In this document: positions 3,956 to 37,781 of the stretch, piece by piece | How the letters are laid out: the number at the start of each line of letters is the position of its first letter | Position numbering within the stretch: position 1 is the stretch's first letter | Assembly (NCBI GenBank): GCA_048937405.1 | Contig: JBHLNF010000003.1 | Coordinates: 264,807-328,806, forward strand | Length of the DNA: 64,000 bases | Reading direction: 5' to 3' | Source: Promethearchaeota archaeon | GTDB lineage: Archaea; Asgardarchaeota; Lokiarchaeia; Sigyniarchaeales; SOKP01 | Program-made: the position numbers and the translations under genes | Notes under the pieces: generated by a model | Told to the model about the DNA's origin: nothing | Seen by the model: only the letters and a program-made list of their open reading frames with translations | The model's database searches: none

Positions 3956-5209
3956 TTAAAATTCAACTTTTTCAGGATAGGTTATTTCTAGCAAACTTAA
4001 TGCTTTTTTTGCAATTTCATATGTAATATCGCCATCAGTTTCTTGACTTTTATATGCTGCTCTTATTTTAGGAAGTAAATATTCTGGAAATATTATTAAA
4101 GGTTTTATATCTGTTAATAGACAAATCCATTTTCTATCATTCTTATCTATAACTTCTGTGATAATATTTAAATTTTTTAAATCCTCTAATAATATCTCGG
4201 TTACAGCAAACTCTGAGAATATTTTTGGAATTTTATCCAATGGATAATGATTGTGCCTCATTAATACAAAAAAATCATAAACATCAGGATTTAAAAGAAT
4301 TGAGGCAATTTTTTTTGTTTCTTCTAATGTTTCTGTATATGGATCGTAATTTGAAAAGAAATCTACAACTTTTTGTCTGTAGAGTGGTAAGAGTTCATTA
4401 TTAGTTTCACTAAAATGGTTTAATAAATTTTCATTAGGGATACGACTAAGTATTAAGTCTTTTACAAGAAATAAATATTCTCCTTGGTGAGTAATTTGTC
4501 CTGTTTTCTTATTTTTCTCTCCTTTTATCCAATCTCTACGAATAATATTCAATTCCAAAAACGGTTGAAGTAAAATGTCAATATTCACATTAGTACTCAT
4601 TTTATCTAAAGTTTTTTTTATTTCCTTTTTTGATGTTGGTGATTCCCGTAATATCTCTAAGATTTTTAATCTCTCAGGACTATTATAGATCAATGCTGTT
4701 TTTTGAAGTTTATCTAAATTGGATAATCGATCTATTTGAAATATGGTGAATTTTAATTCGTTTTTCAATCTTATATTAATATTTTCAATTAAGGAGAGTT
4801 GTTTTGAGTTTCTCGCTCTTGTTAATTTATCAAAAATAGTATCTAATCGATCTCCCATTGTTTTAATCAAATCTTCAAAAATCGCTATTTCATCATCTAA
4901 TTCAAAGATAGAAATTGCGAGATATTGGGTTCCATCAGCAACCTGCTTAAAATAAGACATTACTTGATATGGTGTTTCTTTTAACCTTCCTTCATAATAA
5001 TTGCTATAACTATATTTTACACTGGAAAGTCCTGTAGTGTGCTGATAAAAAATCGCAAATATGTCATTTTCATCAAGCAATTCTGAAAAATTATTTTCAT
5101 CATACTCATCTTCCCGAAATACTAATTGATTCGGTTCGAATTCTGGTTCTATTTCTCCCGTCTCTTTCTGATTTATTTTGAACTGAAATGCTAATATTCC
5201 TTGGATCAC
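3956..5209 (-). CDS. Hypothetical protein with putative longin/uDENN-like N-domain and two winged-helix domains
   Basis: 417-aa ORF with GTG start. Two wHTH-like segments (ERLKILEILRESPTSKKEIKKTL...LLQPFLELNIIRR and NPDVYDFFVLMRH...LLEDLKNLNIITEV) follow an alpha/beta N-terminal pattern. Domain calls are inferred. Confidence 0.5.
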   Translation of the reverse strand: MIQGILAFQFKINQKETGEIEPEFEPNQLVFREDEYDENNFSELLDENDIFAIFYQHTTGLSSVKYSYSNYYEGRLKETPYQVMSYFKQVADGTQYLAISIFELDDEIAIFEDLIKTMGDRLDTIFDKLTRARNSKQLSLIENINIRLKNELKFTIFQIDRLSNLDKLQKTALIYNSPERLKILEILRESPTSKKEIKKTLDKMSTNVNIDILLQPFLELNIIRRDWIKGEKNKKTGQITHQGEYLFLVKDLILSRIPNENLLNHFSETNNELLPLYRQKVVDFFSNYDPYTETLEETKKIASILLNPDVYDFFVLMRHNHYPLDKIPKIFSEFAVTEILLEDLKNLNIITEVIDKNDRKWICLLTDIKPLIIFPEYLLPKIRAAYKSQETDGDITYEIAKKALSLLEITYPEKVEF

Positions 5210-5675
5210 TTATATCACTTTAAAATGTTGATAAATATATATTTTGAATTAAAATTTTTAAATTCTTTCTTAAGTATTTTTATTATTAATATTTAATTAA
5301 AGTTTATTCAAATTAAATCAGTTTATATATTAGTATTTGGAAATGATTTATTCATTTCCCTAAATGAAAATTATAAGTAAACATAGAAGGAATAATTTCT
5401 ATTTAATTATTAATTATATGTATTATTTCCTTACTAAATTTACAGATAGGACTGAGTTCTTAAAATAGGATTTATAAAGGTTCAAAATCAATTTAATGAC
5501 TATTTAGTCCTTGTTTGATTTACCCTTTAATTTATATAATATGATTTCTTAATGAATTTCATATCAGAATAGATTTCAGAATAATTCAAGATCAAGTGGC
5601 AAATTATTTATTAAATAATTTAGTATACTACCTAAATAATAATTTTTTAATTAATAAACCAATGAATACCCAATT

Positions 5676-8600
5676 ATGACATCTAAAATAATTAAAAGAA
5701 AGGATTTTTCAGTTTTTAGTATTATTTGTATGATCATGTTATCATCCTTATTCATTTTATTAATATATACTAATCAGAATATTGATTCATCTTTTAATGA
5801 TAAAAATAAAGAATCTGAATATAACAATTTTAGAAATCCTCAAATGTCAACAGCTAAAGAGAATCTTACTGCGATATGGTATAAGAATCCTGGTTTTGAT
5901 GATCCAATTGAACCAACATGGTATTCAAAATTTGAAGGTGACCAATCAGATATAAATGCAACTTCTGGTTCTGGTCAAGCAAATTATGAGATTCTAGGTG
6001 AGACGAGAACTTACTCTCGAATAAACGGCACACCAACGTCGACATATTGGAAGAATGTTACAAATCCCGAACGTCCCGCTTTACCTGATTTTAATGAAAT
6101 CGATAATTATGGTTGTCATGTATCTCATACTTGGATAGATCCTGACGATCCTTCTCAGATGGTAAGTGTACATTGGGATAGAAATATTACTTTACCAGTT
6201 GATATGTCAGATTATTTTATTACCTCAGTTTCATTAAGTGCAGAAGTAAATGCTACAGTTACCACTGTTGGCAGTGGTCCTCTTTATCGAGGTGGTGTAG
6301 ACGTTGCTGGTGATAGTATTGATACAGCTAGCCCTGATTTTGCAAAAGAATATGATTATGTAAGGTTTTATGTATTGATTTCAGATTTAGAAAAAAATGA
6401 TGTATTTGAAGCGGCTTATAATCAAACAACTAACCTAGGGCAAGACCCAGTTCCAGGTCCGAGTATCCCTAGTATATCAGATACAGTAATTTTTACAAGA
6501 CCAGAAGAAAGTTTAATATCATTTTTAAATACTGTTTTAGAGAATGATCCTAACCATGAATCATTTACATTGTCATTAGGAATGAGAATATTTTGTGCTG
6601 ATAATGGACAAGGTGATCGAGATACATGGGACTCGCTTCGATTTAAATCTTGCAATTTTTCATTTACTTATGAGAAAAAGATTGATGAATTTACGACTGG
6701 ATCATGGTGTCAAGATGGAGATAAAATAACTCAGGTCGTTAATGACACATATGTTACTATTAATGATGCGAAATTGAATTTTAAGTATAAAATAAATGAA
6801 GATTGGACCGATTTATCTCCAAACTCAGAAATTAGAATTTATATAAATAACAATAAACTTCCTGAGGTACTTAATCTTAGTAAAGCTACTACAAGCTTTC
6901 AATTAGCTAATAACCTAGGAGGTTTCGATGTATATGATATTATTAACTATGATATTTACCTAAATCTCTCTATTCAAGTTTATCTTGCAGAGAATTTTCA
7001 TTTAGGCACTAAGAAGATTATATCGATAGATGATGTTTATTTGAATATTTCCTATACAGTTGAATTTCCCGAATATCAAACAGATATTGAAGTATATTTT
7101 AATAATAACAATATAACAGCCAATCCTATATTCGAAATATCAGCTAAGACAGACCTAAATATCACAATTAAATATCCTGATGAATTTGGGATTCATATTC
7201 CTCAAGCAGTTGTAAATTTAATTGGAAATTTAACAGCTACCTTAATTGAGGATGATCTCCGAGGACAATATACAATTATTCTCAATACTGAAGATTTACC
7301 TATAGGACAAATATACTTTAATATGTTAGCACACAGAATAAACTATGAAGCTCAACAGCTTGGTGCCCTATTAATTATTTCTAAAATAGAGACAGAAAAG
7401 ATACAGTTATTTATAGATGGCGAAGAAAAGACAACTTTACCATCTGTGGACGTTCCTCTGCAAAAGTCATTAAATATAACAGTTAAATATAAAGATACCA
7501 TAGGAGATCATGTTCCTGGTGCAACAATTCAATTAGTTGGCGATGGAGTATTTGAAAATTTAGATGAATCTTTAGAATTTGAGCAATATTCAATAATACT
7601 TAATACAACATTGAAGTTTAGATTAGGTCTTAATGATTTATCAATCAATGCTCAAAAAGATAGATATGAGGAACAAAGTGCATATCCAAAAATTACGGTA
7701 CGAAAGATCAATACCCTAATTACACCCGTTTCTGGCTCCAATAATATAAATATTAAGCCAGGACAGAATGCGGATATTAGTGTAATTATTAATGATGCAG
7801 ACTTTAATGAAACCATTAAAGGAGCAATAGTTACTTATACTTGGGAATTTGGAAATGGTATTTTAACTGATGATAATAATGATGGTATATATGAGGAAAT
7901 TTTAGAAAATGTACCTTCTGGTACGCATTCAGTTAATATTACCGTTTATAAAAGCGATATTTATAATTTTGAAAGTTATGAATTCATAATCTATGCTTTG
8001 AGACCAAAACAGGATTTACTTCTTTTCCAAATATTATTGATAATAGGTATTATAGTTTCAATAGGAATAGGAGGTTATCTTTATGCATATCAAAAAGTAT
8101 TAAAATATCCTAAACAAGTCAGAAAAGTTCGTAAGTATCGAAAAACCCTAAATAAAAAACATGCACCTAATATTAGTATAAATGACCGTGAAAAAAGTTT
8201 TAATTCTGAGTATAAACAAGAAGTAAAAAATTCATCAAAATTTATAAGAGGTAAACCTTCAATTAAAAAACCTGAAGAAAGTGGAAAACAAAAAAAAAAA
8301 TCGGAAAAATCTGACATAAAGCTAGGATCTAAAAATGAGGTCGACTCAAATATAAAAATGAGTGATGTAAATCTCAATAACCAAAAATCATATCATAGAA
8401 AAACTTTAAAAAGGCTAAGAAAATTAAAGTTTGGAATTCTTAAATTAAAAAAATTCCAAAAATTCATGTCAATTTTAATAATAACAATTTTACTATTCAA
8501 TTTTCTTATTGTTAGTCATTATCTCTACCAAAATTCAAAAAATTCATTCTATTCCCAAAAAGATGATTTTAAAGATAATCTTGGTATATCAGGACAAAAG

Positions 8601-25994: not shown

Positions 25995-27566
25995 TTGAAG
26001 ACTATAACAGATTTCTTAATTATTGGAAGTGGAATCTCTGGACTTTCTTTAGCGTTAAATCTTTCCAAATTAGTTCCAGAAGAACGAATTTTTTTAATCA
26101 CAAAAGAAAGTCTCCATGAGTGTAGTACATTTCATGCTCAAGGGGGAATCGCTTGTGTATGGGATGATGATGATAATTTTGAAAAACATATCCAAGATAC
26201 ATTAATTGCAGGAGATGGGTTATGTAATAAGCAAATTGTCAGAAAAATAATAACTCAGGCTCCTGAAAGGATAAATGAATTAATAGACTTTGGATTAGAG
26301 TTTACTAGGGATAAAAATGGAGAATACGATCTTGGAAAAGAAGGAGGACATTCGAAAAGAAGAATACTTCATGTGAATGATCAAACTGGAAGAAGTATTG
26401 AAAAAATATTGATAGACAATGTAAAAAAATTAAGTAATATTGAAATAAAGGAAAAATGGTGTGGAATTAATCTTTATGTTAAAGATTTAAAATGCTATGG
26501 GGCATATGTTCTAGAACAGGATTCTGAGGAAATTCATACTATTATAGCTAAATCCACTATTTTAGCTACGGGAGGGGCAGGAAAGATTTATTTATACACA
26601 ACAAATCCTGACGTAGTTTCAGGTGATGGAATCGCAATGGCCTACAGAGCAGGTGTTATGATATCCAATATGGAATTTTATCAATTTCACCCTACATGTT
26701 TATATCATCCATATGCCAAATCATTTCTGATCACTGAAGCAATGCGAGGAGAAGGCGCAATTTTGAAAGATTTAAGAGGAAATGAGTTCATGGGAAAATA
26801 TCATCCTCAAAAAGAGTTAGCACCTCGTGATATTGTATCAAGAGCTATTGATGCCGAATTGAAGAAATCTGGTGATGATCATGTCTATTTGGATATAGCT
26901 TCTTATAAAGATTCTAATTTTATCAAAAATCATTTTCCAGGAATTTATGAAAAATGCTTAAAATTTAATATTGATATTACAAAAGAACCTATTCCTGTAG
27001 TTCCTGCTGCTCATTATTGTTGCGGAGGTGTGAGGAGTGGAATTGATGGTCTTACAGAGATTAAAAATTTATTTGTTATTGGAGAAGCCGCTTGTACGGG
27101 TTTTCATGGTGCTAATAGACTAGCAAGTAATTCTTTACTTGAAGGTTTAGTTACTGCCCATGAATGTGCATTTTATTTATCAGAACATGCATCTAGTTTA
27201 AAAATCAAAGATTTTCCAGAATGGGAAATCGGGAATGCTGTTCCATCAACAGAAGCTGTAGTAATAACTCAAAATTGGGATGAAATTAGAATGTTAATGC
27301 AAAATCTTGTTGGCATTGTCAGATCAGATTTGCGTTTAAAGAGTGCTCTTAAACGAATGAATTTATTTTCAGAGGAGATAGATTATTATTATTGGAATTA
27401 TAAAATCGATAAGAATTTAATTGAGTTAAGAAATTTATCGATGGTTGCAGAAATATTAATTAGGTGTGCACTATCGAGAAAAGAAAGTAGGGGTACTCAT
27501 TATAATGAAAACCACCCTCAAAAATTAGATTTAGCAAGGAATTCTTACATTAAAAGACCTTGGTAA
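25995..27566 (+). CDS. nadB: L-aspartate oxidase
   Basis: IGSGISGL, AQGGIA, EGGHSKRRILH, QFHPT, LITEAMRGEG, ELAPRDIVSRAI, HGANRLASNSLLE, ESRGTH. Confidence 0.95.
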   Translation: MKTITDFLIIGSGISGLSLALNLSKLVPEERIFLITKESLHECSTFHAQGGIACVWDDDDNFEKHIQDTLIAGDGLCNKQIVRKIITQAPERINELIDFGLEFTRDKNGEYDLGKEGGHSKRRILHVNDQTGRSIEKILIDNVKKLSNIEIKEKWCGINLYVKDLKCYGAYVLEQDSEEIHTIIAKSTILATGGAGKIYLYTTNPDVVSGDGIAMAYRAGVMISNMEFYQFHPTCLYHPYAKSFLITEAMRGEGAILKDLRGNEFMGKYHPQKELAPRDIVSRAIDAELKKSGDDHVYLDIASYKDSNFIKNHFPGIYEKCLKFNIDITKEPIPVVPAAHYCCGGVRSGIDGLTEIKNLFVIGEAACTGFHGANRLASNSLLEGLVTAHECAFYLSEHASSLKIKDFPEWEIGNAVPSTEAVVITQNWDEIRMLMQNLVGIVRSDLRLKSALKRMNLFSEEIDYYYWNYKIDKNLIELRNLSMVAEILIRCALSRKESRGTHYNENHPQKLDLARNSYIKRPW

Positions 27567-27654
27567 TATAATATCGTTTTTAATATCTATAATTTTAAAT
27601 TATTATTCTCATTACTATTGATAAGTCTAATCTTATAGAGGAAAAGGATTAATT

Positions 27655-28458
27655 GTGAATATTGGTAAAAAAATTAGAATTGAAAGAATAATTGATCGGA
27701 AAAGCAAGAATACCATTATTATTCCAATGGATCATGGACTTACAATGGGAACCATTAAAGGATTAGAAAATATTGCTGACATGGTTGATAAAGTCGCATT
27801 AGGAGGCGCTAATGCCGTACTCGAACATTCAGGTATGGTTGACGCAGGTCATCGACAATCGGGTAAAGATATCGGTCTAATTATTCATTTATCTGGAGCG
27901 ACTGAATTAGCACCAGATCCAAATAGAAAGGTTTTAGTTTGTTCGGTGGAAAGAGCCTTGAAAATGGGTGCTGATGCAGTATCTATACATATTAATATTG
28001 GTGCTGATGATGAACCCGAGATGCTCCAAGACGCTAGTAAAGTTGTAGAAGCTTCAAGAGAGTGGGGGGTCCCATTATTAGCGATGATGTACCCACGAGG
28101 AAGAAAAATTAAAGATGAGAATGATCCTGAAGTTGTAAATGTTGCTGTAAGAGCTGGGGCAGAATTAGGAGTTGATATTGTTAAAACGAATTATCCTGGC
28201 GATATTGATGCTTTTAAAGAAATTGTTAAAGGAGTAAGTCATATTCCAGTAATAATCGCAGGAGGTCCAAAAATGGATACAATTCCAGATTTATTACAAA
28301 TGGTTTATGATTCACTAGAAGCAGGAGGAGCAGGAGTTGCATTTGGGCGAAACGTTTTTCAATCTGATGATCCTACAAAAATGGTCAGTGCAATTAGCAA
28401 GATTGTACATAAAAACTATACAGTAAATGAAGTTCTGAAAGAATACGGATTTACTTAG
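27655..28458 (+). CDS. 2-amino-3,7-dideoxy-D-threo-hept-6-ulosonate (ADH) synthase / DhnA-type class I aldolase
   Basis: [42 protein letters not shown] (Schiff-base Lys), AGGPK, GRNVFQ. Closest in pattern to archaeal AroA'. Confidence 0.85.
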
Positions 28459-30418: not shown

Positions 30419-31933
30419 ATGGTATTTTCCTTGAAAAAATACGATGTACTTTTAATTCATCCACCTAGAGTGTTAAATCCAGATTATCGTAAAAATGCTA
30501 AATTTATTCGAGGTACATTTATTTTTATACCTATGGGTGTTTTTGCTATTGCAGATTTACTTGAGAAAGAAGGTTTTGGAGTTAAGATAATAAATTATCC
30601 GTTAGAGCAATATCTAAATCGTAATTGGAAATTAATCAACTTTCTCAAAAATATTGATTTTGAAGTGTGTGGATTGGATTTACATTGGCTTCATAATGCT
30701 TACGGTGCAATGGAAATTGCTAAAATTGTGAAAAAAGCAAACCCAAATGCTAAAGTAGTACTTGGAGGATATAGTGCATCATATTACCATCATCAAATAT
30801 TGAAATATTATAAAGATATAGATGGTATAATCAGAGGAGAAGGAGAAGTTCCACTACTTAAATATGTTCAAAGTATTAAAAAAAATCAATCTTTAGATAA
30901 TGTCCCTAATTTATCTTATCGAGATTCTTTTAAACCCGTAAAAATTAATTCCCTTACATATATAGCAAAAACATTAGATAATCTAAATTTTACTAATTTT
31001 TCACTTCTGGAAAATGCAAAGCAATATTTTGAATGCAGTAGGCAAATGATGGGAATCTCTTTTAATCTTTCTATTGGAAGAGGTTGCCCTTTTAATTGTC
31101 CATTTTGTGGAGGAGGTCAAAGGGCACAAAAAAGGTTATCAGGTCGAGAAAATGTCATCCTTAGAAAACCAGAAAAAGTAGTAGAAGATATTAGTAGTGT
31201 TCTCAATAATTTTAATATACCAAGTATTTTTTTTGGACACGGTGCTTATCCAGCTACCTTAAAATATTGGAAAAGATTATTTGGATTAATTCAGAAAGAA
31301 GATTTTGACATTGGGGGAGATTTAGAGATTTGGCGTTTACCATTTCCTAAATATATGTGGGATATATTCTATAAAACATTTCCTCGTAGATATTCATCAC
31401 TTAGTATCTCTCCCAGAACAATGTCAAGTAGAGTACATCAAAAAATAAGGAAAATTTGTGATCCTACCTTTAGTTTTCCTAAAAAGCAAATAAATGATTT
31501 AATAAAGAATGCAAATATATACAAAAGAACTTTAAGAATTTGGCTAACTGTCGGATTTCCTTTCCAATCTCACCTGGATATTCAAAAAGATTTTATTTTT
31601 GCCTTAAAGTGTCAAATAAAATATGGTAAATCAATTTCAAAGCCCATTACTATTATGAATGAACCATATCATATTTTTCCGGGATCCCCTGCTCATGAAG
31701 CTCCTGAGAAATTTGGTTTAAAATTAATTTTAAATTCATTTCCACAAATTTCTGCATTTTTTAAAAGAACTAAAATAACATTTTTCTATAATGCAATAAA
31801 TTATGAAACTAATAGATTTTCTAAAACATCTATTCGTAATATAAATATGTTATTATTTTTAAGTAATTTACTCACTTCTTTTACTACAGGAGCTAAACTA
31901 TCTGATAGAAAAGAACAAGATTCCAATATTTAA
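30419..31933 (+). CDS. Cobalamin-binding radical SAM protein
   Basis: VLLIHPP...PMG, VVLGGYSAS, RGEGE, GRGCPFNCPFC. Confidence 0.9.
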   Translation: MVFSLKKYDVLLIHPPRVLNPDYRKNAKFIRGTFIFIPMGVFAIADLLEKEGFGVKIINYPLEQYLNRNWKLINFLKNIDFEVCGLDLHWLHNAYGAMEIAKIVKKANPNAKVVLGGYSASYYHHQILKYYKDIDGIIRGEGEVPLLKYVQSIKKNQSLDNVPNLSYRDSFKPVKINSLTYIAKTLDNLNFTNFSLLENAKQYFECSRQMMGISFNLSIGRGCPFNCPFCGGGQRAQKRLSGRENVILRKPEKVVEDISSVLNNFNIPSIFFGHGAYPATLKYWKRLFGLIQKEDFDIGGDLEIWRLPFPKYMWDIFYKTFPRRYSSLSISPRTMSSRVHQKIRKICDPTFSFPKKQINDLIKNANIYKRTLRIWLTVGFPFQSHLDIQKDFIFALKCQIKYGKSISKPITIMNEPYHIFPGSPAHEAPEKFGLKLILNSFPQISAFFKRTKITFFYNAINYETNRFSKTSIRNINMLLFLSNLLTSFTTGAKLSDRKEQDSNI

Positions 31934-32073: not shown

Positions 32074-32775
32074 ATGCCCTTTACACAAAAACTAAGCATT
32101 ACGAGAATTATATTAATTTTAATCTTTTTTTTCGCTAGTATCCCTATTACACTAATTTGTGCGCTATTAGGAGATGCTACCATTTTAATTTCTATTACAA
32201 AAGGTTATTTTACATCAGGAAATTCAATTTTCCTTCCTTATTTGTCTATTACTAATATTTTTTGGTTTTTACCTGATAAATTTCAATTTATACAGATCAG
32301 TTCTGGTTTTTTGATTGATAGTATAATTATCATAAATATATGTCCTATGGTTGAAAGAATTGCTTATCAATATTATATAAAGGTTTGTTCAGAGGAAGTT
32401 TTTCAAGAACCTTTTGATTTTGATCCTAAAAATCAAATCCATAATTTACATCAAGGTTCAGTCATACTTTTTGGATTAGGAGACGAGCCAATACTTCCCT
32501 CTAATGTATTAATTTTATCTATTAAATTTAAAAAAAATGAAAGTCTAATAAATAAATGCAATAATTATTATTTTTTAAAAGAAAAAGGCAATAAATTTGA
32601 TGAGATTACTAGTATAAGACTATTTCACTTATCGTTTATATTGCACTATTCACATTTTCTACAATTTTTTAATATATATGATATTGAAAAATTAGATAGT
32701 ATTTCTATCAATCAATATCTTTATCCTCAAACTATTATTTCATATTCAACTAAACCTTTTCAACGGGAGGGATAA
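32074..32775 (+). CDS. Hypothetical protein with hydrophobic N-terminus
   Basis: 233-aa ORF, too long to be likely by chance at this AT content; no motif recognised. Confidence 0.5.
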   Translation: MPFTQKLSITRIILILIFFFASIPITLICALLGDATILISITKGYFTSGNSIFLPYLSITNIFWFLPDKFQFIQISSGFLIDSIIIINICPMVERIAYQYYIKVCSEEVFQEPFDFDPKNQIHNLHQGSVILFGLGDEPILPSNVLILSIKFKKNESLINKCNNYYFLKEKGNKFDEITSIRLFHLSFILHYSHFLQFFNIYDIEKLDSISINQYLYPQTIISYSTKPFQREG

Positions 32776-32865: not shown

Positions 32866-34272
32866 GTGAATTTAATGGAATGGAAAAATGAAATTGAAGA
32901 TTTGTACAAACAAATAACGAATTTAACTCCTGAAGCGTTTCGCCCATCTGTTAAACCTATGTTACGTGAGGCTGCTGAAAAAACAGCGCAACTTAGGAAT
33001 TCTGGATTTGTAAGTAGGGACGATTTGCTATCTGCATTATTTGAGATAACACCAGAAGCATTTCAACCTACAGTTGTCAAAGATTTGAAGACAATAGGAA
33101 TTGATACGGATAGATATATAAAATTATCAGAAATTAGAAAACAATACGCTCGCTCATGGGATGAAATTAGTGGAGCTTTCTTACCTGGTGTCTATCATTT
33201 TACTATATATCTAACGGATCGATGCAATCAAAATTGTCTCCATTGTGCTGCCGCGGTAATGGAGAAACGTCCAGAATTTCCCACTGAAACTTGGATTGAA
33301 ATTATTGAGGATCTTGAACAAAGTTTACGAAAACGCGGTCGACGAGGATGTTATATATGGTTTGGAGGAGAACCTACTATTCGTAAAGATCTTAAAGATT
33401 TAATAAAATATTGTGGTGAAAAGGGCTATTATCAAGCACTTGCAACTAACGGAATTTTGTTTACCGAAGCACTGGCTAAATTATGCGCAGATGTTAAGAT
33501 GAGCCATATTTTTATTAGTTATGATAGTACGGATCCCAAACGCGCTGCAAAAATTAGAGGGCATCCAAAAGCATACGAAGCAGCGGAAAAAGCGTTAGAT
33601 TTAGCTGCAAAATATGGGATTTTTACCATTGCTAATGTAACTGCTCAAAAAGAGAATTTCGATGAATTAGATATGTTAAGGGAATATTTTAAATCTAGAG
33701 GTGTAACGCCCTTTTATAGACCCCTGATCAAACAACGTTCGGCGGATTTAAATTGGGACGAAATCGGCTTAAGTATTGACGAATATCGACAATTCTATGA
33801 TTTTAAATATAAAAATACAATAGAGGCTATCAGAAAAGGAGAAGGATCATCGCTCAATAAATTCTATACATGGGATATGGTGCCATTCATGGAGTGTCCT
33901 ATAAATGATGAGGAAAGGACTGCGATCGAATGGGGCACAGGATGTCAAGCCTGTCGCTCAATTTCCGGGATTGATACTAATGGAGATATATTCCCTTGTG
34001 ATTATCCCTCTGATTTAATCTTAGGCAATATTCTTGAGCAGAGTTGGGATAACATTATGGAAACTGAAATGTTCAAAAAAATTAGAGATCGAAAAATAAA
34101 AGGGAAGTGTTCAAATTGTCACCACCTTGATATGTGTGGTGGAGGTTGCCGGGTGCATGCAGAGAATGTAACGGGTGATTTTTTAGCTGCACTTCCTTTC
34201 TGTTGGCATGAAAATGATCATGAACATGAAGTTAATTTTGCAGATAAAGAAGAAGTAGAATTGCTAGAATGA
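32866..34272 (+). CDS. Radical SAM/SPASM protein with N-terminal DUF2621/PCP_red-like helical domain
   Basis: CNQNCLHC, FGGEP, ATNG; SPASM cysteines GCQAC...GDIFPC...KCSNC...CGGGC...FC. Probable start is ATG at 32875, after GAGGTGA. Confidence 0.92.
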   Translation: MNLMEWKNEIEDLYKQITNLTPEAFRPSVKPMLREAAEKTAQLRNSGFVSRDDLLSALFEITPEAFQPTVVKDLKTIGIDTDRYIKLSEIRKQYARSWDEISGAFLPGVYHFTIYLTDRCNQNCLHCAAAVMEKRPEFPTETWIEIIEDLEQSLRKRGRRGCYIWFGGEPTIRKDLKDLIKYCGEKGYYQALATNGILFTEALAKLCADVKMSHIFISYDSTDPKRAAKIRGHPKAYEAAEKALDLAAKYGIFTIANVTAQKENFDELDMLREYFKSRGVTPFYRPLIKQRSADLNWDEIGLSIDEYRQFYDFKYKNTIEAIRKGEGSSLNKFYTWDMVPFMECPINDEERTAIEWGTGCQACRSISGIDTNGDIFPCDYPSDLILGNILEQSWDNIMETEMFKKIRDRKIKGKCSNCHHLDMCGGGCRVHAENVTGDFLAALPFCWHENDHEHEVNFADKEEVELLE

Positions 34273-34349
34273 TTATTTAGAATTTAATATTCTTTAATAA
34301 AGTAATTTGAAAGAGATAAAAAACAAAAATAAAGGAGGTGATAATTTAA

Positions 34350-34739
34350 TTGAACACAAAAGAAGAATGGGAAGCATATCTCGAGCATTTCATGAAAGCC
34401 TACAATGAGATTCCAGATCTAGCGAAATTGTTAGACCCAATTGCACCATTAATCTTTCAATATGAAATAACTGATAAACCTGAGATGAGTTATTGGCAGT
34501 TTATTGATCATGATAAGATGGATTGGGGAATAGGTATTTATTCCGGTCCTGAAGCCCCAAAAATCATCCATAAAACAGATTTCAACACAATTAAGAAGGT
34601 AAATTCTGGAGAATCTGATCCAATTCAAGCGACTATGGCGGGTACTTATATTGTGGAAGGTGACGTGAGTAAGTTGATGGCATGTGCATCATTATTGCCA
34701 CTTAATGCAAAAGCTCATGAAAAAGCAAATCAACAATAA
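34350..34739 (+). CDS. SCP2 sterol/lipid-binding domain protein
   Basis: TDFNTIKKVNSGESDPIQATMAGTYIVEGDVSKLM matches the SCP2 C-terminal motif (G..dp..a.m.Gkl.v.Gd...lm). Strong GGAGGTG SD before a TTG start. Confidence 0.85.
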   Translation: MNTKEEWEAYLEHFMKAYNEIPDLAKLLDPIAPLIFQYEITDKPEMSYWQFIDHDKMDWGIGIYSGPEAPKIIHKTDFNTIKKVNSGESDPIQATMAGTYIVEGDVSKLMACASLLPLNAKAHEKANQQ

Positions 34740-34862
34740 AGAAAAGAGTATATATTAAAATCTAATAAGAAATTTTTAATTTCATTTTAAAAATCTATAA
34801 ACCAAGAAAAAATAGTCAATAGGAAAAAAGAGAAAAATAATTAATAAACTAAATATCTTAAG

Positions 34863-36275
34863 GTGAGAATGATTCAATTTTATGTTGCGACAAATTGGGA
34901 TCCTAATCTAATCGATGAATTAGCTAACTATCCTGTAGTTGATTTATATGGAGTTGCAGATCATACAATTGTTGGAGGAGGTCGACCCTCGTTTTTGTTA
35001 CGAAATATATCTGATGAAGATATAGCAGAATACATAAAAAAAGTACATGATAATAAATTGAAATTTTCATATCTATTAAATGCCCCATGTATGAATAATA
35101 TGGAGTATGATCCACGCTATCATAAAGAGTTGCTTAATTATCTTCAATGGATTACTGATATTGGAGTTGATGGCGTTATAGTAACTATTCCTTTTTTAAT
35201 ACAACTTATAAAAGAACAATTTCCTAAGTTAAAAATACGAGTCTCCACTATTTCGCATGTTAATAGTGTGAATAGAGCGAAATTTTATGAAATGTTAGGA
35301 GCTGATGAAATCACTCCAGACGTCATGATTAATCGAGATTTTAGGACTTTAAAAAATATTAAGAAAGCAGTTAAATGTAAAATTGTCCTTCTATTAACTG
35401 ATGGTTGTTTATATCAATGTCCTTTCAGATATTATCATTATAATATCTTAGGCCATTCTTCTCAAACATATCAACAATTCGACAGAAATTACATCGATAC
35501 TTGTATATTAAATTGTAGTGTTATTAAATTTTCAAATCCTGCGGAGATTCTCAAATGTAGGTGGGTTCGTCCAGAAGATTTATCCCATTATGAAGAAATT
35601 GGAATCACAGATTTTAAAATAGCTGGACGTCGGATGTCAACCGATTGGATTATTAGATCTGTGAAAGCTTTTTCTTCAAGAAAATATGAAGGAAACCTCA
35701 TTGACATTATTCAAGGATTTACTATGTCAATTGGAGTAGATAAAGATCCAAATATTAAATTCACAAAAACAGTCACTGAAGAGATTAAATCCAAATTAAT
35801 AATTGATAATACGAAACTTGATGGATTTATAAATTTTTTTAAAAAGCAAGATTGTATCTCAATGTGCAATGAGTGTAATTACTGTGATGAATGGGCAAAG
35901 AAAGCGGTTATATTAAATAGAGAGGAATCTACGAGATATGTTGAGTCTATAAAAGATTATCTTGAGGACATATTAACTAGCCGTGAGTTTGGAATCGAAA
36001 CGGCTAAACCAAAAGAGATAAAGAACGATGGTTTATTATGGGATAGTGAAACTAAGATTATTTTTGATGAATTAATAAAATTATCACCACAGCAGTTTCA
36101 TCAAATTGCTAAGATGGTAATTTCTTCTCTAGCAGAAGAAAAAGCCAAAAAAAGGTTTTCAGAAGTTGTAGAAAACAAAGATATTGTTGAAGCATTTATA
36201 GAAGGAACACCTGAACCATTTCAAGCAGATATGAGAGAAGGTCTCAAAAAGCATGGACTTTTGGAAGGAAAATAA
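34863..36275 (+). CDS. U32 'peptidase' family Fe-S protein with C-terminal DUF2621/PCP_red-like domain
   Basis: GGGR, YLLNAPC, GVDGVIV, VSTISHVN, GCLYQC, CILNC, WVRPEDL, FKIAGR, plus an extra CxxxCxxCxxC motif. Confidence 0.88.
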   Translation: MRMIQFYVATNWDPNLIDELANYPVVDLYGVADHTIVGGGRPSFLLRNISDEDIAEYIKKVHDNKLKFSYLLNAPCMNNMEYDPRYHKELLNYLQWITDIGVDGVIVTIPFLIQLIKEQFPKLKIRVSTISHVNSVNRAKFYEMLGADEITPDVMINRDFRTLKNIKKAVKCKIVLLLTDGCLYQCPFRYYHYNILGHSSQTYQQFDRNYIDTCILNCSVIKFSNPAEILKCRWVRPEDLSHYEEIGITDFKIAGRRMSTDWIIRSVKAFSSRKYEGNLIDIIQGFTMSIGVDKDPNIKFTKTVTEEIKSKLIIDNTKLDGFINFFKKQDCISMCNECNYCDEWAKKAVILNREESTRYVESIKDYLEDILTSREFGIETAKPKEIKNDGLLWDSETKIIFDELIKLSPQQFHQIAKMVISSLAEEKAKKRFSEVVENKDIVEAFIEGTPEPFQADMREGLKKHGLLEGK

Positions 36276-36344: not shown

Positions 36345-37781
36345 CTATTTTTTTTTATTTGATTTTTTAGATCTTTGTTTCAGGGAGTGTTCTATCTTCT
36401 GAAAGATTGCTTTAACCATAATTATATTCACTACTCTTGGAATATGAAATCTTAAACCTCGATTTAGAACGACAGTTTTAATTCTAGGCCAAAGTTTTTT
36501 AGAATTTGAAACTTCAAAAAAAGCTCTATTCAAGAAATCTTTCAAATCTTTTATTGATAAATAGGGATATTTAATAATTGGCACTGACCAGTTAAATTCA
36601 CGCCAATCATTGCTTAATAAAAGATTGTCCTCTAAAACTTTTTCCATCAATTTTGTTCCCGGAAATGGAGTTAATACTGAAAAGGTTGTTAAATCGATTT
36701 CTAATTTCTTAGCAATTTCGATTGTAGATTCTAAATCATCTTTTTTATCCTCAAAATTGGATCCAAGAATAATGTTTCCTTGAATAAAATAGCCATAATC
36801 ATGAAGAATTTTTAAAGCTAATTTGATTTGTTTGAATTTAGTTTGTTTGTTAAGAAAATCCAATGTTCGATCAGAAAAACTCTCGATTCCTAAAAATAGG
36901 AAAATAAAACCAGCATCAGCCATCTTTTTAATAATTTTCGGGTGCTTTACAATCATATCAACTCGAATTTGAGTTGAAAAATATTTTCTAATACCTTCCT
37001 GAATAATGGCATTACACAGTTCTTCTACAAATTTATGATCTACCAAAAAATTATCATCAATGATAAAAATAAATGGACTCTGATTTTTAACCTCATTTGA
37101 ATTTAATTCTTTTATAATACTTGGTATTGAACGAGTCCGGTATCTCTTTCGATAAAATTCGTGAATACAACAAAAATTACATGAATATGGACAACCTCGA
37201 CTAGTTTCAATGCAATCAATAGGAAAACCATAAAAAGTGTATTCCACTTTTGCTTCTTTTGAACGATAGTGTCGAGAAGGTAATTTAATATGTTTTAAAT
37301 CTAATAATTCTCGGTCAGGGTTATGAATTATTTTTCCATTTTTTTTATATGATAATCCTGGGATACCAATGGGAGAATTATTTTGGATAAGCTCCCGAAA
37401 AGTTATTTCTCCCTCACATCTTATCAGGATATCAATAGATTGAAATTCAAGAGTTTCTTTAGGAACAAGCGTAGGGTGCCAACCACCTATAACTGTCTTT
37501 GATCCATAAGTTTTAGCAATATTAGCAATTTTAACTACATGATAGATTTGTGGAGTATAATTGCAACTAATCCCTACATAATCAGGTTTAAATTGATAAA
37601 TTGTATTTTCAATGCTTTTTAAATCTATAGTTTTTAGCCTATTATCAATTATAAGGACATCAGCAATTTCTTCAATATTTGCAGCAATATATTCTAAACC
37701 CAATGGTGGAAGAATTACATTTTTTTGGGTACCATGCTTAAAAACGTCAGGATAATCTGGATTTATAAGTAGTACTCTCAG
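36345..37781 (-). CDS. Cobalamin-binding radical SAM protein (BchE/HpnR/GrsAB-like class)
   Basis: PPLGLEYIAA, IGGWHPT, CEGE, TSRGCPYSCNFC, IDDNF, LGIES, LTPFPGT. The frame extends to CTG at 37781, giving the canonical MRVLLINP start. Confidence 0.9.
   Translation of the reverse strand: MRVLLINPDYPDVFKHGTQKNVILPPLGLEYIAANIEEIADVLIIDNRLKTIDLKSIENTIYQFKPDYVGISCNYTPQIYHVVKIANIAKTYGSKTVIGGWHPTLVPKETLEFQSIDILIRCEGEITFRELIQNNSPIGIPGLSYKKNGKIIHNPDRELLDLKHIKLPSRHYRSKEAKVEYTFYGFPIDCIETSRGCPYSCNFCCIHEFYRKRYRTRSIPSIIKELNSNEVKNQSPFIFIIDDNFLVDHKFVEELCNAIIQEGIRKYFSTQIRVDMIVKHPKIIKKMADAGFIFLFLGIESFSDRTLDFLNKQTKFKQIKLALKILHDYGYFIQGNIILGSNFEDKKDDLESTIEIAKKLEIDLTTFSVLTPFPGTKLMEKVLEDNLLLSNDWREFNWSVPIIKYPYLSIKDLKDFLNRAFFEVSNSKKLWPRIKTVVLNRGLRFHIPRVVNIIMVKAIFQKIEHSLKQRSKKSNKKK

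Follow-up and report, generated by a model that had tools for sequence, protein, structure and literature searches.

A trimmed U32-centred gene block in a Lokiarchaeia-type Asgard archaeon and its possible role in oxygen-independent membrane-lipid tailoring

The co-oriented genes for a radical SAM/SPASM enzyme, an SCP2 protein and a U32 protein in the DNA analysed here (64,000 nucleotides of contig JBHLNF010000003.1 of a Promethearchaeota archaeon, hereafter the window) are the surviving core of a larger, modular accessory cluster of Lokiarchaeia-type Asgard archaea. The block present in the window comprises six genes, namely this trio plus two cobalamin radical SAM genes and one gene for a small membrane protein (Table 1), and the cluster probably modifies a hydrophobic membrane molecule without oxygen. 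Our preferred reading, to which we give a little under an even chance, is that of a working block, trimmed from a cluster like that of its closest relative (genome G320), which tailors a membrane lipid or glycolipid in an O2-independent manner. The open reading frames and upstream motifs bear out the layout given in the preliminary description, with spacers of 77 and 123 bp within the trio and GGAGGTGA-type SD motifs upstream of all three genes, and Pfam and the predicted structures confirm the assignment of the products as SPASM, stand-alone SCP2 and Cys-rich U32 proteins. Chance adjacency of the trio is excluded because the arrangement recurs in related genomes, and the nearest homologues carry the names Promethearchaeota or Lokiarchaeota. 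A literature search found no paper describing the cluster or its composition, in agreement with the earlier view that such a system is undescribed.

Table 1 Features of the cluster and its surroundings, in window coordinates
Feature	Position	Strand	Evidence
Second ADH synthase copy	27655..28458	+	TIGR01949
Class-B (cobalamin-binding) radical SAM enzyme, Ta0216-like; opens the conserved block	30419..31933	+	Pfam, NCBIfam
Small membrane protein, no assigned family	32074..32775	+	Hydrophobic helices by inspection
Radical SAM/SPASM enzyme	32866..34272	+	Pfam Radical_SAM and SPASM
Deletion scar at SPASM 3' end	34230..34281	+	Comparison with G320
SCP2 lipid-carrier protein, stand-alone, 129 aa	34350..34739	+	Pfam, AlphaFold, Foldseek
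Divergent U32 TIM-barrel protein	34863..36275	+	Pfam, predicted structure, tree
Second class-B radical SAM enzyme, BchE/HpnR-like; convergent with U32 gene	36345..37703	-	Pfam, NCBIfam

The SPASM product matches Pfam Radical_SAM (78 bits) and SPASM (39 bits), and its translation shows a CX3CX2C motif and a Cys-rich SPASM domain; the likely true start is the ATG at 32875, where the homologues begin, and an N-terminal DUF2621-like adaptor occupies about 32875-33141. The trio had been presented as an operon, but it is not a self-contained one, as is seen by comparison with G320, where the same locus carries a second SPASM gene (SPASM-2) and an ABBA aromatic prenyltransferase gene, both placed between the SPASM and SCP2 genes; the trio is the remnant of that longer cluster minus these two genes. 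The window's SPASM product shares 95% identity with the G320 protein SPASM-1 and 49% with SPASM-2, and positions 34100-34229 align with the 3' region of SPASM-1 at 94%. The tail of the protein resembles that of SPASM-2, unlike that of SPASM-1, with the last ~13 codons deriving from this lost paralogue, and positions 34281-34500 correspond (87%) to the G320 region right after the prenyltransferase stop codon. As judged from these alignments, descent from a G320-like ancestor is shown, with SPASM-2 and the ABBA prenyltransferase deleted here and a chimeric SPASM gene left behind. Protein searches and tblastn with the G320 and L007 proteins found no prenyltransferase in the window's genome, recovering the shared adaptor only.

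Relative to G320, dN/dS is 0.12-0.15 for both class-B radical SAM genes and for the SPASM, SCP2 and U32 genes, values that also integrate the time preceding the deletion, and 0.05-0.24 for the flanking housekeeping genes; the genes that remain here are intact, and these values indicate purifying selection on them. The reduced layout is also found in another genus (G258, the same as L031/L081), where the SPASM-1 tail is native and the layout therefore arose independently, and that of L074 is similar to the reduced form.

The class-B radical SAM enzyme that opens the block matches Pfam B12-binding (56.7 bits), has a CX3CX2C motif in its translation and is 88% identical to its G320 orthologue; scoring 252 bits against TIGR04190 (the Ta0216 family, cut-off 500), it is a predicted relative of that family and not a confirmed member. 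Its counterpart on the minus strand matches B12-binding (60.5 bits) and Radical_SAM (72.8 bits) and is 93% identical to the gene in the same position of G320. The top NCBIfam matches are BchE for this second enzyme (155 bits, cut-off 481) and AhbD, AhbC and NirJ for the SPASM product (118-130 bits, cut-offs 500-650); that tetrapyrrole enzymes score best for the radical SAM proteins counts against a lipid reading. A class-B radical SAM gene lies no more than 7 kb from the U32 gene in 28 of the 40 related loci surveyed and is the commonest partner remaining beside it where the cluster is split. Together with the additional U32 paralogues found alongside SPASM enzymes in six of the 40 loci, this leaves the earlier suggestion of a radical SAM enzyme standing in for a second U32 unsupported. 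The membrane protein, with two to three hydrophobic helices at its N-terminus by inspection, gave no significant Pfam or NCBIfam match and nothing above noise in the ESM Atlas; homologues occur in 19 of the 40 loci, some of them distant and devoid of SPASM, SCP2 and prenyltransferase genes, and its dN/dS of 0.58 relative to G320 indicates fast evolution.

The SCP2 product scores 24 bits against Pfam SCP2 (PF02036, cut-off 21.3), and the best PDB matches of its AlphaFold model (pLDDT 90.5) in Foldseek are SCP2 domains (TM 0.61-0.72), with UbiJ-SCP2 6h6p first (E 6e-6). In other genomes, homologues exist both as separate proteins and as C-terminal fusions to a U32 paralogue of 683 aa. The SCP2-U32 linkage is robust, being adjacent or fused in 23 of the 40 loci (free in 20, fused in six). 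A full-length prediction of the U32-SCP2 complex with alignments scored 0.00 and speaks neither for nor against an interaction. One SCP2 homologue has been noted in a cultured Lokiarchaeon in a preprint (PMC12139934).

Translation of the U32 gene likely starts at the ATG at 34869, where the homologues begin. Pfam Peptidase_U32 (PF01136) matches the product with 52.5 bits (cut-off 22.4), spanning only profile positions 2-64 of 233, and the predicted structure (pLDDT 77.6), whose best match is 5d88, confirms a TIM barrel at the level of the model. Residues Cys76, Cys182, Cys186 and Cys218 are spaced C76...C182-X3-C186...(C214)-X3-C218 and are followed by a second motif, CX3CX2CX2C, at residues 331-341 (nt 35853-35885; C331-X3-C-X2-C-X2-C341). 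In 149 representatives of the family, both sets reach 87-100% conservation, and an Fe-S site formed from at least four conserved cysteines is plausible. A tree of 20 sequences with long branches places the cluster U32s in a clade of their own (100/100), facing another with UbiU, UbiV, TrhP, RlhA and the three canonical paralogues; in line with the preliminary description, the protein does not group with the tRNA and rRNA hydroxylases, and hhalign against UbiU gave a probability of 16% over 90 columns. The window's genome encodes a single cluster-type U32, its three canonical U32 genes lying elsewhere and grouping with the known hydroxylases. By sequence, the protein is not an orthologue of UbiU, UbiV, TrhP or RlhA and is part of an extensive, uncharacterised subfamily marked by two conserved Cys clusters, which numbers at least 747 sequence clusters. 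It ends in a DUF2621-like adaptor (nt 36036-36272), a domain of ~80 aa common to the SPASM and U32 enzymes that is all-helical in the model and whose profile gave no significant match among PDB sequences. Exclusive pairing of this adaptor with SCP2 was considered but gains no support from adjacency, the U32 adaptor being retained in all loci without a nearby SCP2 gene.

Beyond the class-B and membrane-protein genes, the 40-locus survey found SPASM and prenyltransferase genes in 20 loci each, and CDP-alcohol transferase, GT2 and LuxE genes in 13, 11 and 10, respectively. In L097, L099 and L100 (52-56% identity) and L089 (about 72%), the genes kept beside U32 are those for the membrane protein, the CDP-alcohol transferase, GT2 and LuxE alone; the CDP-alcohol transferase is closest to archaetidylinositol-phosphate synthase. 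With a CDP-alcohol phosphatidyltransferase, a GT2 glycosyltransferase, a LuxE-like adenylating enzyme and the membrane protein as the distant partners, the likeliest predicted substrate is a polar lipid or glycolipid of the membrane and not a respiratory quinone, a reading based on gene neighbourhood in related genomes whose synteny is shared by descent. The conserved neighbours are consistent with the hydrophobic membrane-lipid substrate proposed at the outset, whereas the quinones then listed among the candidates fit poorly with head-group genes of this kind. These lipid head-group genes are not adjacent to the cluster in the window; the genome keeps the CDP-alcohol transferase paired with GT2 at another locus, away from the trio, together with more glycosyl enzymes, a sulfotransferase and two more class-B radical SAM genes.

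The cluster is patchy, present in about 3 of 31 genomes of the window's own genus, and is restricted to the window's own class among the genomes sampled. A spread over the Asgard phyla, as NCBI names imply, was rejected, the contigs labelled Heimdall-, Hod-, Thor- and Hermodarchaeota belonging to genomes that the genome collection assigns to the window's own family. ADH synthase is the first enzyme of the archaeal shikimate pathway; the copy in the window scores 340 bits against TIGR01949 (cut-off 299), and another copy above the cut-off lies at G000:C7:985171-985947. A homologue immediately follows the U32 gene in L007, L066, L068, L074 and L075, and on one related metagenome contig an entire shikimate operon does so. 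The second copy is a possible supplier of the chorismate/prephenate branch, its association with the cluster being tentative. With chorismate synthase and chorismate mutase both encoded in the genome, prephenate should be available, as far as supply is concerned.

Mechanistically, we posit that SCP2 would hold a hydrophobic substrate drawn from the membrane, that the cobalamin radical SAM enzymes would C-methylate or otherwise change it at unactivated carbons, and that the SPASM enzyme would perform radical C-H chemistry. With its two predicted Fe-S sites, the U32 protein could carry out an O2-independent oxidation, most likely a prephenate-dependent oxygen insertion of the U32 type, the DUF2621-like domain that it has in common with the SPASM enzyme may act as a shared docking module, and the prenyl-aromatic branch would be an optional decoration, lost in the window's genome. 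Published work describes prephenate-linked hydroxylation by U32 enzymes that needs no O2 and involves an SCP2 partner (PMC6747719, PMC10990095, PMC11574389), with direct catalysis by UbiU/V not shown in vitro (PMC11574389); for the cluster U32 we infer prephenate use by analogy, and hydroxylation would be an extrapolation from U32 proteins of a different clade and Cys spacing. A wider proposal, which we consider doubtful, is that the two-Fe-S U32 subfamily and class B/C radical SAM methylases form a general O2-independent lipid-tailoring machine, of which the Lokiarchaeia version would be a metabolon, with SCP2 and the docking domain, that yields a hydroxylated, methylated and optionally prenyl-aromatic-decorated lipid.

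Among the other explanations, it is conceivable, if unlikely, that the product is a small prenylated aromatic resembling a quinone and that the loss of the prenyltransferase and one SPASM enzyme has broken the pathway here, leaving the trio as a recently disabled, functionless remnant. The scar does mark an evolutionarily recent loss, and the ABBA (PTase_Orf2) prenyltransferase of G320 and of half the surveyed loci, the second ADH synthase near the cluster and the shikimate operon adjoining it on one contig all suit an aromatic product. However, the retained genes are intact with low dN/dS, the reduced layout recurs independently in G258 and in similar form in L074, and deeper relatives have U32 without any prenyltransferase. 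Moreover, searches of the genome found no MqnA/D family and no ubiquinone or menaquinone pathway, and it has four UbiA-family genes, none of which is scored as MenA or UbiA. Tailoring of a tetrapyrrole or another cofactor instead of a lipid, suggested by the NCBIfam matches of the SPASM and minus-strand enzymes and by a weak PCP_red match in two of 15 adaptor copies, appears improbable given that all of those scores fall far under the family cut-offs, that DUF2621 is the better match in 12 of the 15 copies, and that SCP2, the membrane protein and the head-group neighbours suit a lipid better.

Maturation of a ribosomal peptide or protein, with the adaptor as a leader-recognition domain, is suggested by features typical of RiPP pathways, namely radical SAM enzymes of the SPASM and class-B types, ABBA prenyltransferases and a small domain shared by several enzymes. 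It is nonetheless very improbable: 27 loci examined for RiPP precursors yielded no conserved small ORF within or next to the cluster, the intergenic gaps between the window's cluster genes measure 69-140 bp, the all-helical adaptor is DUF2621-like and not an RRE, and SCP2 and the lipid enzymes would be left unexplained. We give still less credence to a U32 that hydroxylates tRNA or rRNA like TrhP or RlhA beside unrelated neighbours. TrhP is its sole NCBIfam match, but at 28 bits against a cut-off of 534, and the separate clade, the canonical U32 genes elsewhere in the genome, the fusion of a U32 paralogue to SCP2 in some genomes and the patchy distribution within the genus all argue otherwise.

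Under the preferred reading of O2-independent lipid tailoring, the locus is a naturally minimised U32-centred pathway of six genes, without the prenyltransferase branch, and more tractable for expression and lipidomics than the form with 8-10 genes. Should the product prove to be a Lokiarchaeia membrane lipid, it would bear on Asgard membrane biochemistry, models of eukaryogenesis and sedimentary lipid biomarkers. A further outcome is the definition of a broad U32 subfamily that has a second Cys motif and is found repeatedly beside radical SAM enzymes in bacteria; to our knowledge, only four U32 activities are known, those of UbiU/V, TrhP, RlhA and the Bacillus counterparts.

Compared with characterised proteins, the window's SPASM enzyme shares its CX3CX2C motif and SPASM architecture with AhbD, AhbC and NirJ, and the minus-strand class-B enzyme shares its B12-binding and radical SAM architecture with BchE and HpnR, yet both score 3-5 times under the equivalog cut-offs, and the N-terminal DUF2621-like adaptor on the SPASM enzyme is absent from those families. 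The U32 protein is closest to MK0906 of Methanopyrus kandleri (PDB 5d88), which is, as far as we know, the only solved U32 structure, both in sequence (E 6e-10) and in structure (E 4e-9, TM 0.61 on the target), in a match that covers only about 180 residues and whose aligned stretch lacks the CX3C pair. With the prephenate-dependent RNA hydroxylases TrhP and RlhA it has in common a U32 TIM barrel with conserved cysteines, whereas it falls in a separate clade, and neither an RNA-binding domain nor a C-terminal U32 domain was detected in it.

The nearest functional parallel drawn in the preliminary description was UbiT/UbiU/UbiV, the O2-independent ubiquinone hydroxylation system of Proteobacteria (PMC6747719, PMC10990095). 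As an analogy this remains reasonable, albeit unproven: both combine a U32-fold Fe-S protein (putative here) with an adjacently encoded SCP2 carrier, both show natural SCP2-U32 fusions (ubiT-ubiU fusions per PMC6747719), and both are found in anaerobes, the window's genome being predicted to make prephenate. As orthology it fails, the tree and hhalign indicating that the U32 and SCP2 proteins are not orthologues of UbiU/UbiV and UbiT; SCP2 shows no specific sequence similarity to UbiT (probability 0.3% for the SCP2 alignment against the E. coli protein), and the cluster U32 lies outside the clade of UbiU, UbiV, TrhP and RlhA. The four-Cys [4Fe-4S] motifs of UbiU (CX6CX16CX38C) and UbiV (CXnCX12CX3C) (PMC6747719) are absent from the cluster U32, which has instead the extra CX3CX2CX2C motif and the C-terminal adaptor. 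In place of the UbiU/UbiV heterodimer, the window's genome has its single cluster-type U32, and to the U32-SCP2 pair the cluster adds radical SAM enzymes and a membrane protein.

Open reading frames, Pfam matches and predicted-structure matches bear out the preliminary description of three co-oriented genes for a radical SAM/SPASM enzyme, an SCP2 protein and a U32 protein, which lie in a window of ~29% G+C, with spacers of 77 bp and 123 bp and GGAGGTGA motifs, Shine-Dalgarno-like, ahead of all three. Homologues of the radical SAM enzyme begin at the position equivalent to ATG 32875, and those of U32 at the equivalent of ATG 34869. Since the SCP2 Pfam score was marginal, its identity was checked by structure, and the best PDB matches of the predicted model (pLDDT 90.5) were all SCP2 domains, with UbiJ-SCP2 at the top. 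For U32, both model (pLDDT 77.6) and sequence were matched to 5d88, to our knowledge the only solved U32 structure. The trio stands in a wider block of genes, listed in the table. Further upstream, nadB (L-aspartate oxidase; NF006567, 693 bits) precedes the window's ADH synthase gene, the pair spanning 25995-28458; the other ADH synthase copy of this genome is on contig C7 (G000:C7:985171-985947), and a nadB-ADH synthase pair occupies the equivalent place in G320, the nearest relative among the collected genomes.

Genes of the trio and of the surrounding block (window coordinates)
Feature	Position	Strand	Remarks
ADH synthase gene (DeoC-type)	27655-28458		above equivalog cut-off; second copy in genome
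Class-B radical SAM gene, upstream of trio	30419-31933		TIGR04190-like, 252 bits vs cut-off 500; CX3CX2C present
Membrane-protein gene, upstream of trio	32074-32775		233 aa; no known family
Radical SAM/SPASM gene	32866-34272	+	Pfam Radical_SAM plus SPASM
SCP2 gene	34350-34739	+	Pfam SCP2, 24 bits, barely above cut-off
U32 gene	34863-36275	+	Pfam Peptidase_U32, 52.5 bits, first quarter of profile only
Second class-B radical SAM gene, downstream of trio	36345-37703	opposite to trio	

The trio is what trimming has left of a larger cluster. In G320, a genome of the same genus whose U32 is 91% identical to the window's, the order is NadB, ADH synthase, S8 protease, class-B radical SAM, membrane protein, SPASM-1, SPASM-2, ABBA prenyltransferase (PTase_Orf2), SCP2, U32, a reverse class-B radical SAM and ERCC4, and the window has this order minus exactly SPASM-2 and the prenyltransferase. 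At the DNA level, window 34100-34229 aligns with the 3' portion of G320 SPASM-1, the final ~13 codons of the SPASM gene match the tail of SPASM-2 and not that of SPASM-1, and the sequence from 34281 on corresponds to the region directly past the stop codon of the prenyltransferase gene. Deletion has thus left the window with a radical SAM gene that is a SPASM-1/SPASM-2 chimera. A tblastn search of the entire genome, whose marker-gene completeness is 100%, found no prenyltransferase body, SPASM-2, third class-B enzyme or extra cluster U32s.

Neighbours were counted within 7 kb of U32 in 40 loci of the species-level genome collection, and a set of 27 loci fetched by handle was surveyed as well. 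The canonical order runs from a class-B radical SAM gene through the membrane protein, SPASM-1, SPASM-2, another class-B radical SAM and the prenyltransferase to either SCP2 or two additional U32 paralogues (with SCP2 fused to the C-terminus of the second, a 683-aa protein), and ends with the 470-aa U32. Class-B radical SAM genes were the most frequent neighbours (28/40), followed by SCP2 in either form (23/40; free in 20, fused in six), SPASM and the prenyltransferase (20/40 each), the membrane protein (19/40), a CDP-alcohol phosphatidyltransferase (13/40), GT2 (11/40) and a LuxE-like gene (10/40). Where clusters are split, it is the class-B radical SAM gene that remains with U32 (loci L046, L048, L056, L058, L078 and L098). 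Homologues from a Sigynarchaeum-labelled genome (L097, L099, L100) diverge most (52-56% identity); in these and in L089 (~72% identity), no SPASM, SCP2 or prenyltransferase lies near U32, which is still accompanied by the membrane protein, CDP-alcohol transferase, GT2 and LuxE.

The reduced module looks like a stable, selected state, given its low dN/dS and the recurrence of reduced forms elsewhere. Against G320, dN/dS was 0.12-0.15 for both class-B radical SAM genes, SPASM, SCP2 and U32, and 0.05-0.24 for flanking housekeeping genes, values that also cover time preceding the deletion. In G258, which belongs to a different genus, the order is likewise reduced to class-B radical SAM, membrane protein, SPASM-1, SCP2 and U32, and SPASM-1 keeps its native tail, so that this layout represents an independent loss; locus L074 holds a related reduced form with an inserted FAD/CCG pair. 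The membrane protein is the only block gene with high dN/dS (0.58), evolving far faster than its neighbours, and in distant homologues its conservation is confined to the N-terminal ~110 residues.

A helical domain of ~75 aa is common to the SPASM N-terminus and the U32 C-terminus (31% identity, E 3e-12). Its nearest Pfam family is DUF2621 (12 of 15 copies), with only weak matches to PCP_red. This adaptor is on U32 in every locus, including those without a nearby SCP2, and can occupy either end of the prenyltransferase; it can also be doubled. On contig C119 of genome G109 (L088), a cluster with two SCP2 genes holds a 547-aa U32 bearing two tandem adaptors (5158-6800) beside a second U32 copy. 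In a Thermoplasmata archaeon chromosome (L103, CP070629.1; 6729-7813), a free-standing 86-aa adaptor lies directly upstream of a 345-aa U32-like ORF, 52% identical over query residues 3-273.

U32 was found in 25 of 301 sampled genomes of the phylum, all 25 in the window's class and 22 in its family, and in about 3/31 genomes of its own genus; the cluster is an accessory, patchily distributed trait. Names on homologues suggested Heimdall-, Thor-, Odin-, Hod- and Hermodarchaeota, yet in the genome collection several contigs so named fall within genomes of the window's own family (NCBI organism labels on MAG contigs conflict with the collection for L005/L082, L032/L084, L031/L081 and other JBHL... 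records). On this basis no claim is made that the cluster is conserved between Asgard phyla, and breadth should not be inferred from taxon names on protein matches.

Neighbouring genes (the CDP-alcohol transferase, GT2 and LuxE, with those of the L104 type) suggest that the product is a polar membrane lipid or glycolipid. The transferase is nearest to archaetidylinositol-phosphate synthase, and the window's own genome has it paired with GT2 on a different contig from the trio. That genome's locus L104 (G000:C19:226000-244000) encodes a radical SAM enzyme, a Zn-ribbon protein, a CDP-alcohol phosphatidyltransferase, two GT2 enzymes flanking a hexapeptide transferase, UDP-galactopyranose mutase, a polysaccharide deacetylase, a sulfotransferase, two class-B radical SAM enzymes and an SDR; the locus resembles a cluster for a sulfated glycolipid or glycan, and some of its genes accompany the U32 cluster in other genomes. 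In three genomes (L031:11821-11984, L032:4587-4723, L057:19312-19380) the transferase-GT2 spacer, absent from the window, is conserved on both strands and may be a non-coding RNA or regulatory element.

Other products fit the gene content less well. Against a respiratory quinone, no MqnA/D family was found in the genome, and its UbiA-family genes, four in number, score as DGGGP-synthase-like, PRK12871-type, decaprenyl-phosphate phosphoribosyltransferase-like or unassigned; the single UbiD-family gene is uninformative. That no conserved small ORF accompanies the cluster argues against a RiPP, and although the best matches of the radical SAM enzymes are tetrapyrrole-like, those matches score far under their cut-offs. 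As for aromatic supply, an ADH synthase homologue lies directly 3' of U32 in five other loci, one related contig has SPASM fused to the prenyltransferase followed by a complete archaeal shikimate operon, and the genome encodes chorismate synthase and chorismate mutase. The second ADH synthase copy, its homologues beside U32 and the two chorismate enzymes are circumstantial evidence for supply of prephenate for U32-type oxygen insertion, or of an aromatic building block.

A literature search found no paper describing this system, in line with the suggestion that its composition is undescribed. What this window newly contributes is the history of the deletion, the convergence on a reduced layout and a family-wide cysteine signature. 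A profile search of 1.84 billion representatives gave 747 U32 clusters at E<=1e-30, most of them some 390 aa long and lacking the adaptor; over 149 of them, Cys76 (87%), Cys182 (97%), Cys186 (100%) and Cys218 (100%) are conserved, as is a CX3CX2CX2C motif at 331-341 (95-97%; numbering of the window's U32), and these two cysteine sets suggest that the family likely carries two Fe-S sites. Of four contexts read for distant members, three (L061, L062, L063; not L060) have a class-B or HemN-like radical SAM gene alongside. In a sparsely sampled tree with long branches, the cluster U32s all fell into one clade of their own (100/100 support), apart from E. coli UbiU, UbiV, TrhP and RlhA and from the three canonical U32 genes of the genome. 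Profile comparison with UbiU was weak, SCP2 had no specific similarity to UbiT, and the cysteine signature is unlike the motifs published for UbiU and UbiV (PMC6747719). Membership in the UbiT and UbiUV families thus fails, whereas the analogy with them, as first proposed, serves reasonably as a working model of the SCP2-U32 pair.
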